From a virus (Duplodnaviria > Heunggongvirae > Uroviricota > Caudoviricetes): 64,000 nucleotides of DNA. The DNA lies in the IMG/VR virus record IMGVR_UViG_3300025162_001855, one strand, 5' to 3'. Both the position numbers and the translations under genes were made by a program. The notes under the pieces were generated by a model. That model did no database searches and had not been told where the DNA came from. It saw only the letters and a list, made by a program, of their open reading frames with translations. Positions 7,898-44,463 of the stretch are shown here, piece by piece (the first letter of the stretch is position 1; the number at the start of each line of letters is the position of its first letter).

Positions 7898-7974
7898 AGT
7901 ATCTCCTTCATACGGTACACAGAGTAAGTACCCAGGTTAAACTCTGTTGGTGTAGGACCTTCCTACAATACTAT

Positions 7975-8184
7975 TTAGCGGCGACGATTCAATGTGCTAA
8001 TAATATTGGCAAGATCGGTGTTCGAACGCCGAAGTGATCGTTCTGTGGCTACGAGTTTGGCTTCGAGTATAGCCATCTTCTCCAATATCATTGCGTACTT
8101 TGCTTCCAACACTACTATCTTTTTCTGTTCTTCCGTGACAGATTTTGTAATCGGTTTTGTGTCGTGTGAGTACATGTTCGTCAT
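7975..8184 (-). CDS. small coiled-coil protein
   Basis: heptad pattern; TAAATA 6 nt upstream of ATG. Confidence 0.65.
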   Translation of the reverse strand: MTNMYSHDTKPITKSVTEEQKKIVVLEAKYAMILEKMAILEAKLVATERSLRRSNTDLANIISTLNRRR

Positions 8185-8185
8185 A

Positions 8186-8413
8186 TCATTTATTTAGCAC
8201 AGTAATCGTTTCTAAAATAATATTGGGGAATTTGAGATGCAGCAAAATCTCATCCCGCTCATCTCGAGTGGTGATCATGATTCGGGGGATTGCATTGGAG
8301 TGGGAATAGTAGTCAAAGTCCGTAGTAACATCGACATTCAATCCACTGCCCGCTAGCCACTCTAGCGCGTCACTGCGAGGCCGATCAATAACCACCCACT
8401 TCTTCACAATCAT
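8186..8413 (-). CDS. hypothetical protein
   Basis: ORF coupled to upstream gene. Confidence 0.6.
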   Translation of the reverse strand: MIVKKWVVIDRPRSDALEWLAGSGLNVDVTTDFDYYSHSNAIPRIMITTRDERDEILLHLKFPNIILETITVLNK

Positions 8414-8733
8414 TGCTTGAATCTCAGTGTATTAAATGCCAACAAAATGTCGCGCTTGTCCTCGTTAACAGGATGGACTGCAACCGCAGTAATTCCAACA
8501 TCGAGATCGGGCTCACCAAAGCACTCATACGCATAAGAAAATTCATCAAGTATACGCATAACGGCCCATAGCCCGTCGCGATCGCGAACACCAATGCAAA
8601 CAAAAATGGTTTCATTGGCCTTAGCTTTCCGGCCCAATGTTGAACCAATCTTGTAGGCCACGTGGGCCGTTTGGACAAGTTGCTGCTCGGGTGTGAGATC
8701 TTGTCTTGTGAAAAAGTAAACGTATCGTTTCAT
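8410..8733 (-). CDS. Pth2-superfamily (peptidyl-tRNA hydrolase II-like) protein
   Basis: YFFTRQDL..QQLVQTAHV, FGEPD, ITAVAVHP match the PTH2 fold pattern; GGAG RBS; promoter TTGACG-17-TATGCT at 8753-8781. Confidence 0.7.
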   Translation of the reverse strand: MKRYVYFFTRQDLTPEQQLVQTAHVAYKIGSTLGRKAKANETIFVCIGVRDRDGLWAVMRILDEFSYAYECFGEPDLDVGITAVAVHPVNEDKRDILLAFNTLRFKQ

Positions 8734-8760
8734 TATGGTCTCCGAAAAATATAGCATACA

Positions 8761-8792
8761 CAAAAAGAAAGGGGCCGTCAAGCCCCTTTCTT
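8761..8792 (-). terminator. intrinsic terminator after tmRNA (overlaps the next promoter)
   Basis: AAGAAAGGGG/CCCCTTTCTT 10-bp stem followed by a U tract on the minus strand. Confidence 0.85.
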
Positions 8793-8794
8793 GG

Positions 8795-9088
8795 TTGCTT
8801 AGGTTACAGAGTGTTTCCTACTCCGGCTCAGCTAGTTTTTAGGCTGCTAGAGCGTATGCACTATCGTTTGCATTTACGTTTTTACGCCGATTACGTCGGT
8901 CGTCTCTCGAGTGGTCAGTCATCCTATTCTCTGTCAATCGATCCCTTTCACCCCCATAGATACCGGAACGTTAACCCTATGGCGTTTAGGTTAACTACTG
9001 TCTGCCAACCAGCCGGTATTTTAAATTGGTGGAAGTGGCGGCATACGATAGCCGCGTCTTGTCCAGTTTTACGAATCCCTCATACCAC
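8795..9088 (-). ncRNA. ssrA: circularly permuted (two-piece) tmRNA
   Basis: acceptor piece ...GAC-GCGGC-TATCGTAT-GCCGC-CACTTCC-A-CCA ends at 9027; 71-nt intervening segment; coding piece starts GGGGGTG at 8955 (G3.U70); pk1 CCGA/TCGG + CGT/ACG; tag GCA AAC GAT AGT GCA TAC GCT CTA GCA GCC TAA = ANDSAYALAA* at 8871-8839. Confidence 0.93.
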
Positions 9089-9846
9089 TATAACTTTTGT
9101 GGCATACTCGTTTTGAGTCTACCACGAATAAACCCGTTATCCAAATGTTCTGCCAATTGCGATATTTGAATTACATGCTCGTCTATACCATTATTTATCC
9201 AACAGGTGCTTACTCGATGTCCAAGTTTACCACGAACCCAACCATCTGGTATTGGTTCATCTTTACCTATTCTTCTCACCTCTTTGGTAAGAGTATTAGA
9301 TATCCAGTATTTTCCAAATTGACTATTGCCTTCTCCTGTTGCTTTTTCACTTATCTTTTTCTTGTGTTCTTCCCTTTCTTTGGGGGTAGCATGTTTCCAA
9401 CCATTTCTTGGATTGGTTTTATTTGAGGTTTGAACCTTGTTCAACCAATTCCGATAATGTTCGGTGTGGTTTGCTTTTTGATTGGCCATAAATTCTATCA
9501 ACTTCCTACGTGCAATTTTTCCACCAACTCGGGCAGCTTCTTTATGTTGTTCAGAACCATTCCAATGATTCCATCCACCGACTCCACCAGTCCGTATATT
9601 ATATGTGTCGGTTCTCTTGCAGAATTCTTCATTAACTATATTGAGTTCTTCAACCCACATGTCCTGTTCATTGTCAAATATATGCAATATTTCTTTGATG
9701 AAATGTTCGATTCCGTATTTCTTTTTGGCTCGATTTAACGCATGTCCAGAGCCCATGTAACCGTCGTTGATGTCCCAAGTTACATGAGCACCAACATAAA
9801 TCTTACCGTTTACGGTATTAGTAATTTTATAGATTAGGTACAGCAC
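9088..9846 (-). CDS. free-standing GIY-YIG (Seg-like) homing endonuclease
   Basis: LIYKITNTVNGKIYVGAH...YMGSG; probable GTG start at 9846, 5 nt after TAAATA. Confidence 0.88.
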   Translation of the reverse strand: MLYLIYKITNTVNGKIYVGAHVTWDINDGYMGSGHALNRAKKKYGIEHFIKEILHIFDNEQDMWVEELNIVNEEFCKRTDTYNIRTGGVGGWNHWNGSEQHKEAARVGGKIARRKLIEFMANQKANHTEHYRNWLNKVQTSNKTNPRNGWKHATPKEREEHKKKISEKATGEGNSQFGKYWISNTLTKEVRRIGKDEPIPDGWVRGKLGHRVSTCWINNGIDEHVIQISQLAEHLDNGFIRGRLKTSMPQKL

Positions 9847-9886: not shown

Positions 9887-9965
9887 AATGTTGGATCGGT
9901 TGCATGGCCCTGATTACCCAACCACCCCTATGTCGTTAGGTGACTTACGATTGGTGTCCAACATT
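9887..9965 (-). ncRNA. unidentified structured element, putative small RNA
   Basis: 9-bp terminal stem AATGTTGGA/TCCAACATT with internal hairpins, starts immediately after CTAAATA; only a 16-codon ORF inside. Confidence 0.5.
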
Positions 9966-9966
9966 A

Positions 9967-10617
9967 TTATTTAGTTCTACTACGGAACTCTTCAAACAAA
10001 GGATATATTGTTTTCCTTTTAAGTTCCATAATGTCAAAAGAGTGCTTGAGTCCCAACTGCACATCTTTGTTTTCCGAAAGAACAAATACATACCGTATCT
10101 TCGATTTGTCACCGATAAACTGTTGGAGTTGATCCGAATCTATAACCGGAGACAATTTATATTCTTTTGTGAAAGTATCATATACTGATATTGTGCCGCC
10201 ACGATCGACCATTCCGGACCATAATCGTATTGCATCGTCGGACATTATACCATCACTGGAAAATACCAAGTTTAAATTTGATACGTCCTGTTTGATTGCG
10301 ACATACAAATCTGAAGCATACGGCGATATGTTCTTGCCGAGCAGCGGATTTTTTGATGTCAGCACCACTTTACAAAAGTTACCCATACGTTCAGTATCAA
10401 CTATGATGGATACTTTTTGTGCAGACTTATCTCCAACCCAATATGTTACCTGATCCCCCATTTCAATCTTGAACATTTTGCTATTCAATAGAATGGCTTT
10501 TCTGTCTACAAGATTTTCTTTTAGGAGTTTGTGTTGGGCATCAAAAGCATTCTCGCTCGGCAACATCCAGGGTGTCTCTGTCAAGAATGCTCGAAAAAAT
10601 ACCTCATAATTGTCCAT
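9967..10617 (-). CDS. hypothetical protein, possible GNAT-like domain
   Basis: SDGIMSDDAIRLW resembles the SDHSQTAAGARVW motif of 42347-43555; TAAATA 4 nt upstream. Confidence 0.65.
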   Translation of the reverse strand: MDNYEVFFRAFLTETPWMLPSENAFDAQHKLLKENLVDRKAILLNSKMFKIEMGDQVTYWVGDKSAQKVSIIVDTERMGNFCKVVLTSKNPLLGKNISPYASDLYVAIKQDVSNLNLVFSSDGIMSDDAIRLWSGMVDRGGTISVYDTFTKEYKLSPVIDSDQLQQFIGDKSKIRYVFVLSENKDVQLGLKHSFDIMELKRKTIYPLFEEFRSRTK

Positions 10618-10632
10618 GCAGTATTTAGCACA

Positions 10633-19943: not shown

Positions 19944-20204
19944 TTACTTCTTGTCAACTTTCTTTGGTATCTTTTTTGGAACAGACAATTTTGGATTGTT
20001 CTCTCTTTTGGTTTTGGCAATGGCTCGTTGCTTAGCCAATCTTGCCTTTACACTTGGTTTCACATATTCGCGTTTGGCGTCGAGCGTGTCCAATTTTCCA
20101 TCGTTCTCGACCTTCTTCTTAAACTTGCGCAGCATCTTCTCAAAATTGTCGCCTTCAATATCTACACGAAGGCCACTAATAATTGACTGGTGTCTAACTC
20201 TCAT
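19944..20204 (-). CDS. rpsU: ribosomal protein bS21 homolog
   Basis: VDIEGDNFEKMLRKFKKKV...REYVKPSVKAR. Confidence 0.85.
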   Translation of the reverse strand: MRVRHQSIISGLRVDIEGDNFEKMLRKFKKKVENDGKLDTLDAKREYVKPSVKARLAKQRAIAKTKRENNPKLSVPKKIPKKVDKK

Positions 20205-21450
20205 TTCTACTTCCTTTCTTTTTGATTCTTCTAAACTTAACAGATGGTTGTGTACCATCTTTCTCCACATACTCTTTAGTTATCGTAACCGAGCTCACCC
20301 CTTGCATATTTTTTTGGCTCAAGTGGAATTGCAACGGGTTCAATTTCTTGTCCAGAATACTTCTAAGACTGCGTGCGCCCGTCCCCATTTTTATAGCCGA
20401 TTCAGCAATGGCTTCCAATGCGAGATTTTCAAACTTGAGTTTGATTGGTAGGAAGAGCTCTTGGTATTGTTTGGTCAGACTGTCTTTTGGTTCTGTTAGA
20501 ATCTGGACCAGTTGATCCTTGGTGAGTGCTTCGGTGGTTGTAAGGATTGGCAAGCGCCCAATCAATTCTGGAATGATGCCATATTTGACCAAATCTCGAT
20601 CTGTGACATCCTTCAAGTTTGCCTTCTTCTTGCTTACATCAGCAGAGAATCCAATCCCCGATGTACCGGATGCCCGAGATTCGAGTATCTTGTCCAATCC
20701 AACAAATGCACCACTGCATACAAATAGGATATGCGTAGTATCCATTTCAATAGTTTCAACCATTCCCAATTTTTTGTTTGGTTCGGTGGGGACGGACATA
20801 ACGTGTCCTTCGATCATCTTGAGTAGTGCTTGTTGTACACCCTCACCGCTAATGTCGCGGGATACTATTGCACTGTCTCCCATGCGAGCAATCTTGTCAA
20901 TCTCGTCGATAAACACAATGCCATGTTCGGCAAGATCAATATCACCCTTGGCCGATTGTATCAGCTTACTCAATAGTGATTCAACATCATCGCCAACATA
21001 GCCGGCTTGTGTAATTGTAGTTGCATCTCCGACCACAATAGGCACATTTAGCAACTCGGCGATGGCCTTGACCATTAGTGTCTTGCCACTGCCAGTTGGT
21101 CCAAGTACGAGCACATTGCTCTTTTGAATCTGAACGTTGGCCTTTGATTGTTTATTATTGAGTCGCTTGTAATGATTATGTACAGCCACACTCAGAGCAA
21201 TCTTTGCATGATCCTGGCCGATAACAATATTGTCAAGGTGTTCCTTGATTTCTCTCGGCGATGGAACCTTAGCTTTTGCTTTCTTTATCTTGGGTCTCGG
21301 CGTGTCCTTGGCCAATAGGTCCTTGATTGATTCAAAGCAAATATCGCATATAGCAACCTCGGTCCCAACAATTAACTTATGTACTTCGTTTTGATTGCGC
21401 TGGCAGAAGCTGCAATGTTTGACTGTACTTTCTTTGTATTGCATGTTCAA
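20194..21450 (-). CDS. clpX: ClpX AAA+ unfoldase
   Basis: CSFC..CDIC zinc domain, GPTGSGKT, TQAGYVGDDVE, FIDEIDKI, GEGVQQALLK, IGF loop. Confidence 0.96.
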   Translation of the reverse strand: MNMQYKESTVKHCSFCQRNQNEVHKLIVGTEVAICDICFESIKDLLAKDTPRPKIKKAKAKVPSPREIKEHLDNIVIGQDHAKIALSVAVHNHYKRLNNKQSKANVQIQKSNVLVLGPTGSGKTLMVKAIAELLNVPIVVGDATTITQAGYVGDDVESLLSKLIQSAKGDIDLAEHGIVFIDEIDKIARMGDSAIVSRDISGEGVQQALLKMIEGHVMSVPTEPNKKLGMVETIEMDTTHILFVCSGAFVGLDKILESRASGTSGIGFSADVSKKKANLKDVTDRDLVKYGIIPELIGRLPILTTTEALTKDQLVQILTEPKDSLTKQYQELFLPIKLKFENLALEAIAESAIKMGTGARSLRSILDKKLNPLQFHLSQKNMQGVSSVTITKEYVEKDGTQPSVKFRRIKKKGSRNES

Positions 21451-24915: not shown

Positions 24916-25590
24916 CTAGTGGTGCTCTTTGTAGTATTTGTCCACTTTTTTCCACCATTCGGATGTCCAATGGTCAAATTCCTTACCCTTAATCTCGAAA
25001 ATCTGTAGTTTTAGCTCGGGTGTACACACCAATACCACACCCTGATTAATATCGGTACCGTACATTTCGTTATGGGCCACTGCATACGCACATAATTGGC
25101 AAAAGTATCCCTCGATCCATTCTCTCTTTTTGGGCTTGTTACTTTGCTTGAAGTCAATGATTGCCGAATCCTTGTCCCATATGCCGACCAAATCCGTTGT
25201 TCCGGCATACAGTTCGGGATAGTAAAGACTGAGTTCTGTACCCCATGCTTCCTTAAGATTTGGCTTTAACGCACCCTCGATAATGATGCGCGACATTTTA
25301 AATGCTTGCTGATGAACTAGATTTGTACCGGGTTCTTTCTCCTCATTAAGGAGCCAACGCTCAATATATTTGTGCATTGTAGTACCGCGTCCCCCGGCCT
25401 CTTTGGTAATGCGTGTGGCTTCTTGGTCGCCGACTCGCTTACGCCATTCAACCAATGCTTTCTTATCGGCAGTCTTGTCCAAAATTGTAGTTACACTTGG
25501 AAGAGCAACCTTATCCGGAGTGTGGTAATAGCGCGTTCCATTAATCGTGACTTTTTCCAAGAGCTTGTATTCATACGGCTTCGTAATCAT
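24916..25590 (-). CDS. PD-(D/E)XK exonuclease (lambda-exo/Cas4-like)
   Basis: LPSVTTIL, RGTTMH, YAGTTD, IIDFKQS, QLCAYA; TTGACA-17-TATTAT promoter. Confidence 0.88.
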   Translation of the reverse strand: MITKPYEYKLLEKVTINGTRYYHTPDKVALPSVTTILDKTADKKALVEWRKRVGDQEATRITKEAGGRGTTMHKYIERWLLNEEKEPGTNLVHQQAFKMSRIIIEGALKPNLKEAWGTELSLYYPELYAGTTDLVGIWDKDSAIIDFKQSNKPKKREWIEGYFCQLCAYAVAHNEMYGTDINQGVVLVCTPELKLQIFEIKGKEFDHWTSEWWKKVDKYYKEHH

Positions 25591-41936: not shown

Positions 41937-42350
41937 TTATTTAGCTCCAGATGTCCAAGCAAACTGTCTCGCATCACCCTTGCTTGCCTTGAATCCCAGA
42001 GAGATATAAAACTTCTTGAGCTTACTCAACGGTGTCTTACTCTTGTCCCATGCAAATAGCTCTAGATTTATGCCGGCTTGCTTTGCTTCGTTTTGCAACT
42101 GTATCATGCCACGCTTGCCAACACCCTTTCCCTGTGGAAATGCATGGACAAATTTAATCTCGACCCAATCGGGACCTTTGAAACTAGTTGTAAGCTCAAA
42201 CAATGCAACCGATTGTCCTTCATCGTATACCATTCCAAATTCTTTGTTGTTCATTGGATTGGATGGATATTTGGCGTACATTGCATCGACAAACTTCTTT
42301 GCCGGTGTATTGTTATCGGAGAGCTTCAGTGCTACTTCACTGATTTTCAT
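41937..42350 (-). CDS. GNAT acetyltransferase
   Basis: AFPQGKGVG acetyl-CoA motif, LKKFYISLGF; MKISEV. Confidence 0.75.
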   Translation of the reverse strand: MKISEVALKLSDNNTPAKKFVDAMYAKYPSNPMNNKEFGMVYDEGQSVALFELTTSFKGPDWVEIKFVHAFPQGKGVGKRGMIQLQNEAKQAGINLELFAWDKSKTPLSKLKKFYISLGFKASKGDARQFAWTSGAK

Positions 42351-44449: not shown

Positions 44450-44463
44450 TATTTAGCTAAATA
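44450..44463. promoter_or_regulatory. back-to-back late-type promoters (palindrome TATTTAGCTAAATA)
   Basis: sits between divergent genes, TAAATA on both strands. Confidence 0.65.

Follow-up and report, generated by a model that had tools for sequence, protein, structure and literature searches.

A circularly permuted tmRNA gene with an eight-nucleotide T-loop adjoins a SegB-like nuclease gene in freshwater phage DNA

Identification of the permuted tmRNA gene

We identified a circularly permuted (two-piece) tmRNA gene on the minus strand of a 64-kb stretch of viral DNA (the whole stretch analysed, hereafter the window), where it extends from position 9089 to about 8765. The gene scores 109.9 bits against the merged Rfam model of permuted tmRNA (RF04321, tmRNA_permuted, cut-off 47, E 1.5e-20), a model that originates in PMC11915505, and the match (window 9089-8839) covers the full model, positions 1-213. 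The permuted order can be read on one strand, as the T-arm, the acceptor 3' strand and the CCA come first, and the acceptor 5' strand and the tag frame follow downstream (Table 1). The Rfam score, the parts read directly and the phage gene setting bear out an earlier note on this DNA, which had proposed a phage-borne circularly permuted tmRNA and had suggested the Rfam permuted-tmRNA models as a check. The acceptor piece, the 71-nt spacer with its helices, the GGGGGTG start of the coding piece, the G3.U70 pair, the UAAAU-GCA context, the tag, the tag helix and the terminator that it described were each confirmed in place. The locus it gave (8795-9088) is right, although the gene is somewhat longer.

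The window tmRNA also matches the alphaproteobacterial type (RF01849, 63.6 bits, cut-off 50), where only positions 40-270 of the 355 in the model are aligned; a full-length match with the clade-specific 5' and 3' terminal structures is not seen. Two relatives (L001 and L002) align to RF01849 positions 1-355. A two-strand fold of both predicted mature pieces recovers the acceptor stem, the T-arm and the three P2 helices, and this dimer, with a canonical tRNA-like domain, is predicted at -40.3 kcal/mol versus -32.9 for the pieces folded apart. The P2 helices (AGUGGU/ACCACU, AUUC/GGAU and CUG..CAA/UUG.CAG) are found in the Rfam alignment as well as in the minimum-energy dimer.

The acceptor stem of 7 bp (GGGGGUG/CACUUCC) consists of G1-C72, G2-C71, G3.U70, G4.U69, G5-C68, U6-A67 and G7-C66, and both alanine identity determinants, G3.U70 and A73, are there. 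The G4.U69 pair occurs only in the window copy (CACUUCC), versus CACCUCC with C69, and hence G4-C69, in all of the approximately 30 relatives. Adjoining G3.U70, it could weaken charging. A closing helix of the same type as that of the window spacer is found in L012, L019 and many other relatives, with compensatory changes between members; in the relatives it ends in GUAUCU, followed by 2-5 nt and then G1.

The pk1 region is the part of the earlier description that stands only by half. Its 7-bp hairpin is present, whereas a convincing second stem was not found in the window tmRNA (the best candidate has 3 bp) and two of the four pairs modelled in the RF04321 alignment are non-standard. Every sequence feature of a two-piece tmRNA is present except pk1, of which the hairpin alone is seen.

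Two further open frames overlap or adjoin the gene. Opposite to it, on the plus strand, is a frame of 101 codons (window 8811-9116) that is almost certainly not a real gene and might lead gene callers astray. Directly after the terminator, the minus-strand ORF 8410-8781 was considered as Pth2-like and this reading was rejected: it has no Pfam match at E<=1 and no PDB sequence match at E<=10, and its best match is a weak PHROG 'hydrolase' (7.8e-5). As the Pth2-like reading is without sequence support, a tmRNA-Pth rescue cassette was not adopted.

Table 1. Features of the tmRNA gene and its surroundings (window positions, unless another record is named)
Feature	Position	Strand	Basis or remark
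Acceptor piece, 63 nt	9027-9089	minus	direct reading, Rfam alignment, two-strand fold
P2 3' strands	9089-9056	minus	within acceptor piece
T-arm, GCGGC / UAUCGUAU / GCCGC (stem 9055-9051/9042-9038)	9055-9038	minus	direct reading
T-loop, 8 nt, U-A-UCG-U-A-U; extra Watson-Crick pair A9049-U9045 inside U...A pair	9043-9050	minus	reading
Acceptor 3' strand, CACUUCC	9037-9031	minus	direct reading
Discriminator A73	9030	minus	direct reading
Encoded CCA	9029-9027	minus	direct reading
Intervening segment (spacer), 71 nt	8956-9026	minus	direct reading; ORF-free
Spacer closing helix, AUACCGG/CCGGUAU	9019-9013/8966-8960	minus	direct reading
Spacer inner hairpin, GUUAACC/GGUUAAC	8995-8989/8976-8970	minus	direct reading
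Coding piece	8765-8955	minus	direct reading, Rfam, terminator prediction, two-strand fold
Acceptor 5' strand, GGGGGUG	8955-8949	minus	direct reading
D-loop-like, AAAGGGAUCGA	8948-8938	minus	direct reading
P2 5' strands	8937-8910	minus	Rfam alignment, dimer fold
pk1-region hairpin, 7 bp	8903-8884	minus	two-strand fold and reading
Resume context UAAAU, then GCA	8871-8869 (GCA)	minus	direct reading
Tag frame, GCA AAC GAU AGU GCA UAC GCU CUA GCA GCC UAA (ANDSAYALAA and stop)	8839-8871	minus	reading and Rfam
Tag codons; stop UAA	8871-8842; 8841-8839	minus	direct reading
Tag helix, stop codon enclosed	8853-8847/8835-8826	minus	direct reading
3' hairpin, loop AGGAAAC	8825-8807	minus	direct reading
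Terminator, strong, 12 bp	8792-8765	minus	terminator prediction
SegB-like GIY-YIG homing endonuclease gene, 252 aa, GTG start at 9846	9088-9846	minus	PHROG, Pfam, homologues
Conserved block before nuclease start; ATAAATA (9858-9852) 5 nt ahead of start codon	9852-9885	minus	window, L188, L190
CTAAATA, nearest upstream copy to nuclease-tmRNA unit	9968-9974	minus	over-represented motif
BUCT-ZZ01 tmRNA	L198 1274-1674; ON615601.1 ~116.9-117.3 kb		partly beneath 'hypothetical protein' CDS

An eight-nucleotide T-loop that escapes ARAGORN

The T-arm has the 5-bp stem GCGGC/GCCGC, but its loop (UAUCGUAU) counts 8 nt and not the standard 7, and the Rfam alignment treats one T-loop U as an insertion. 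The loop is best read as a U-A pair and an N-N' pair that close a UCG turn, with one U bulged. A pattern scan of IMG/VR in which loop positions 2 and 6 were left free returned 18 loci, every one of them a tmRNA gene: 16 are new (9 standard, 7 permuted) and two are permuted relatives already in hand. Among the 18 distinct viral tmRNAs with 8-nt loops (window included), positions 2 and 6 are A-U in 11, C-G in six and U-A in one, and all 18 distinct sequences pass Rfam. These compensatory changes keep the 8-nt loop across the 18 tmRNAs and thus indicate selection on structure. We read the loop, from these sequences, as a variant within the permuted tmRNA family and not as a ground for exclusion. 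A 6-nt form (UUCGAU) also occurs, without the inner pair.

The same 8-nt loop is found in standard one-piece viral tmRNAs (L172, L173, L175, L176, L177, L179, L180, L183 and L187). Moreover, some T-arms are letter-identical across standard and permuted genes, with L172 equal to L186, and L177 equal to both L182 and the window. Such identity suggests exchange, or recent rearrangement, between the standard and permuted forms in phages.

ARAGORN (version 1.2.41, run on natural sequences only) reports no match in the window, as the earlier note had anticipated in calling the element possibly invisible to standard tRNA scans, and none in seven relatives. Detection of permuted genes varies with loop length: ARAGORN found 7 of 7 genes with 7-nt loops, 3 of 7 with 6-nt loops and 0 of 11 with 8-nt loops. 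Of seven standard genes whose loop has 8 nt, it found one. In a sample of 15 bacterial permuted tmRNAs, all from Pseudomonadota, the T-loop is 7 nt without exception, mostly GGCRGUA, and ARAGORN detects 12 of the 15; the 8-nt pattern was not found among 401 sampled Pseudomonadota genomes. The idea that non-canonical T-loop sequences are specific to phages was rejected, given that bacterial alpha-type genes have GGCRGUA, and only the lengths of 6 and 8 nt are unusual. The missed ARAGORN call is likely due to the length of the T-loop. Viral tmRNAs with 8-nt loops, and some with 6-nt loops, escape ARAGORN in both standard and permuted form, and phage tmRNA censuses based on this program (PMC9004378, PMC7162821) are probably undercounts.

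Relatives of the window tmRNA

The 18-nt 5' start of the gene recurs in permuted tmRNAs of viral and metagenomic contigs, which have spacers of 12-90 nt. The wider viral set of permuted tmRNAs shares an end-pairing spacer with compensatory changes, a short leader before G1, and a 3' hairpin loop with a GGAAACA-like motif. A scan of viral contigs for the spacer-plus-start pattern gave mostly chance matches, which were filtered. The exact 18-nt start was present in no tmRNA among one genome for each of 185,579 prokaryote species. Fourteen prokaryote matches to it were set aside as a host lead: they have no recognisable tmRNA 3' end and look like chance, and the one in E. coli (L041), examined in detail, is unlike tmRNA.

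A SegB-like nuclease gene at the 5' end

The gene immediately upstream encodes a nuclease matching PHROG 314 (2e-38) and Pfam SegE_GIY-YIG (5.6e-7), and its GTG start was placed via alignment to homologues. The genes overlap slightly: the nuclease stop codon (UAG, 9090-9088) extends into the beginning of the acceptor piece. The closest full-length homologues in IMG/VR are 44-59% identical (L188, L190/L191, L199, L200, L201, L202 and L203), and all seven distinct ones end 4-9 nt before a permuted tmRNA gene. The adjoining tmRNAs vary in acceptor stem, T-loop and tag. Two partial contigs (L189 and L192) contain the start of a similar nuclease-tmRNA arrangement. At 37-38% identity, homologues are located 220-250 nt upstream of a tmRNA, and dozens of remoter ones (32-45%, L204-L278) lie in phage tRNA clusters, typically with a tRNA 5-20 nt after the stop. 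These remoter homologues form a large SegB-like family tied to stable-RNA genes. The gene is sporadic, being missing beside most permuted tmRNAs of the family; its domain, its stable-RNA neighbour and this sporadic presence are those of a SegB-like free-standing GIY-YIG endonuclease.

In three of the nuclease-adjoining permuted tmRNAs (L200, L202 and L203) the full CCA is not encoded (ACCU or ACCG follows the acceptor strand), and CCA addition would be needed.

One homologous locus appears to preserve a trace of replacement. Directly upstream of the nuclease cassette, L188 carries a 34-nt relic (2917-2950) of the 5' extension of another tmRNA, closest to that of L174. The relic ends exactly at GGAC and has a local alignment score of 39, against 22.4 +/- 2.3 for shuffles, and downstream of the nuclease gene is a complete tmRNA of another type. 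This arrangement would fit a displaced resident tmRNA allele, and the nuclease and tmRNA together look like a mobile cassette. T4 SegB recognises the T stem-loop region of tRNA genes, and in mixed infections it drives the inheritance of its own gene and of the tRNA region around it to nearly 100% (PMC2330249). We tentatively suggest, with rather more doubt than confidence, that a dedicated SegB-like clade at the 5' ends of permuted tmRNAs moves nuclease-tmRNA cassettes among aquatic phages by gene conversion, displacing resident alleles. If true, such movement would account for the mismatch between phage tmRNA types and host lineages, and could drive odd, compensated T-arms such as the 8-nt loop, provided that these protect from cleavage. 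The fixed junction between this nuclease clade and permuted tmRNAs offers a testable route of lateral spread, one that competes with 'host transition' as an explanation of tmRNA phylogenies.

Transcription signals

No promoter was found directly upstream of the window tmRNA, and the T4-type late promoter TATAAATA is not enriched in the window. In most relatives that lack the nuclease gene, a motif of the TATAAATA type stands just ahead of the acceptor piece. The conserved block before the nuclease start has a counterpart in L185, where CTAAATA stands 5 nt before the nuclease ATG. CTAAATA occurs 20 times in the window versus 8.2 +/- 2.4 expected, mostly on the minus strand and just before ORFs (for example at 7972-7978, 8191-8197, 9968-9974, 10622-10628, 41938-41944 and 44450-44456), and is a candidate phage promoter word. 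From the conserved ATAAATA block and the over-represented CTAAATA upstream, we infer that the tmRNA derives from transcription across the nuclease gene.

Between the upstream CTAAATA (9974-9968) and the conserved block is a well-folded element of 79 nt (9887-9965, minus strand) that has no Rfam match at E<=10. One of its hairpins, ACCU-AACGACAUAGGG, is similar to the inner one of the tmRNA spacer (ACCUAAACGCCAUAGGG), with borderline statistics, and its similarity to the 5' extensions of the family is not significant. The element lies where L188 has its tmRNA relic and may, on borderline statistics, be left over from a displaced tmRNA copy.

Phage setting and host

The window encodes GIY-YIG homing endonucleases, a DnaB-type helicase, a primase, a helicase, an intein-bearing class II RNR, endolysins and several phage-only families. 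It is phage DNA, and its carrier is a freshwater jumbo phage. The DnaB shares 49% identity with its counterparts in jumbo phages PA5oct and Atu_ph07, and all sampled 31-mers of the locus are present in nine freshwater or lake runs from three studies (2016-2020). Blastn and megablast searches with the locus and with 20 kb returned no match among GenBank phages. Neither ARAGORN nor Rfam reports a tRNA gene in the 64 kb.

SmpB was not found among the 72 open frames of 120-230 aa in the window, nor in any of five related tmRNA-bearing viral records, two of which are at least 97% complete. The phage therefore probably relies on host SmpB. Genes for ClpX (with zinc finger), bS21, Hsp20 and ClpS are clustered at 19.1-21.5 kb, approximately 10 kb from the tmRNA. 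The window also contains a DexA/Rv2179c-like 3'-5' exonuclease gene (24916-25590, minus strand; PHROG 298, 6e-58), and a dozen related loci have a homologue of it no more than a few kb from the tmRNA (e.g., L001, L003, L016, L019, L060 and L062, as well as L094, L095, L160, L171 and L181). This proximity may reflect synteny or a role in RNA end-trimming.

The suggestion in the earlier note that the proteobacterial-style tag hints at the host proved weak. The cultured freshwater cyanophage BUCT-ZZ01, whose host is Synechococcus elongatus, encodes a permuted tmRNA that lacks annotation (RF04321, 111.9 bits; beta type, 94.5 bits) and bears the tag ANDETFSMALAA, and the tmRNA of phage Melnitz is likewise out of line with the lineage of its host (PMC9004378). 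The tag is uninformative on the host. A proteobacterial host is hinted at only weakly, through the affinity of the DnaB to those of Pseudomonas and Agrobacterium jumbo phages. In BUCT-ZZ01, and so in one cultured cyanophage at least, a permuted tmRNA goes unannotated beneath a 'hypothetical protein' call.

Proposed function and alternatives

The locus is probably a working permuted ssrA in a freshwater jumbo phage and part of a homing-endonuclease/tmRNA cassette. We infer tmRNA function from the DNA. One transcript, most likely through the nuclease gene from ATAAATA (9858-9852) or CTAAATA (9974-9968), would end at the terminator (8792-8765). RNase P would cut before G8955, the 3' end at A9027 would be trimmed back as far as the encoded CCA, and the 71-nt spacer would be thrown away. 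Pairing in the 7-bp acceptor stem and in three P2 helices would hold the 63-nt acceptor piece and the coding piece of approximately 160-190 nt together. Alanyl-tRNA synthetase would charge the molecule through G3.U70 and A73, and host SmpB would bring it to ribosomes stalled on broken mRNAs. Translation would resume at GCA 8871 and append ANDSAYALAA, and the C-terminal LAA would route the product to ClpXP, for which the phage could provide its own ClpX (20194-21450). The likely gain would be that ribosomes are freed and amino acids recycled while host and phage mRNAs are cut during infection. The SegB-like nuclease probably spreads itself and the tmRNA gene into related phages at co-infection.

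Several points weigh against a working ssrA: the G4.U69 pair, the 8-nt T-loop, pk1 seen as a hairpin, the core-only match to the alpha model and the missing promoter directly upstream. A decaying or repurposed copy, transcribed and poorly charged, would act at most as an SmpB-titrating decoy that damps host trans-translation. That G4.U69 is found in no relative speaks for such a copy, as do the 8-nt T-loop, the weak pk1 and 5' and 3' ends that are reduced relative to the alpha model, and there is a precedent in the decoy role proposed for the domain-only tmRNA of mycobacteriophage DS6A (as cited in PMC4131195). We nevertheless consider it unlikely, because the tag frame, the resume context, the stop codon and the tag helix are intact, compensatory changes preserve the 8-nt T-loop in the 18 distinct viral tmRNAs, the phage ClpX matches the LAA degron, and the sequence was stable over runs from 2016 to 2020.

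The tmRNA might instead be mainly the landing site and passenger of the homing endonuclease, kept by gene conversion and not by any benefit to the phage. This would account for the short junctions of 4-9 nt in all seven distinct close homologues despite their differing tmRNA types, and for the remains, in L188, of a displaced tmRNA 5' end ahead of the cassette. It seems improbable, however, given that most viral permuted tmRNAs of the family are intact without an adjoining nuclease and that the tags retain degron-like ends. Since ssrA is a frequent site of phage integration and phages often carry pieces of it (PMC9004378), the stretch might also be bacterial DNA, namely a host ssrA or a fragment of one that serves as a phage attachment site. 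We give this explanation hardly any credence: the gene is complete and not a 3' fragment, the 64-kb window holds phage-type and auxiliary genes only, and the exact 18-nt start is missing from the tmRNAs of the prokaryote species searched.

Comparison with known systems

The window tmRNA is a further case of a known class, as two-piece phage tmRNA has already been documented. The earlier note held that phage tmRNAs are mostly one-piece, which understates the published record of two-piece ones; a published census called 53 of 133 distinct phage tmRNA structures two-piece, 50 of these from aquatic phages, and described a two-piece tmRNA in the Methylophilales phage Melnitz (PMC9004378). Aquatic myophages (Melnitz, pelagimyophages such as Mosig, and some cyanophages; PMC9004378) likewise have a permuted ssrA with a complete tag and no smpB, and in both cases the tmRNA type need not match the host. 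The window differs from them in its 8-nt T-loop, in belonging to a jumbo phage with a DnaB-type replisome and in the homing endonuclease gene joined to the 5' end of the tmRNA, and Rfam reports no glutamine riboswitch in it.

One-piece phage tmRNAs (mycobacteriophage Bxz1 group and Bacillus phage G; PMC4131195) and those of huge phages, some of which also encode SmpB (PMC7162821), are phage-borne ribosome-rescue RNAs as well. Their genes have the standard order, and the smpB that accompanies some in huge phages was not found in the window.

The two-piece tmRNA of Caulobacter and other Alphaproteobacteria shares with the window the acceptor-spacer-coding order, the tRNA-like domain, P2, the resume context and an ANDxxxALAA-type tag. 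In contrast to this type, the window tmRNA matches only the core of the alpha model and has an 8-nt instead of a 7-nt T-loop and G4.U69 in place of G4-C69. Its 71-nt spacer is at the top of the sampled bacterial range (5-73 nt).

For the nuclease, the closest known system is T4 SegB. The T-arm motif of SegB (GGTTCRANTCC) is absent from the window tmRNA. Both nucleases belong to the SegE_GIY-YIG/PHROG 314 family and are encoded directly beside stable-RNA genes, SegB in a tRNA cluster, whereas the clade of the window (about 250 aa) is tied to permuted tmRNA, with a stop codon that lies 4-9 nt from the tmRNA 5' end or overlaps it.
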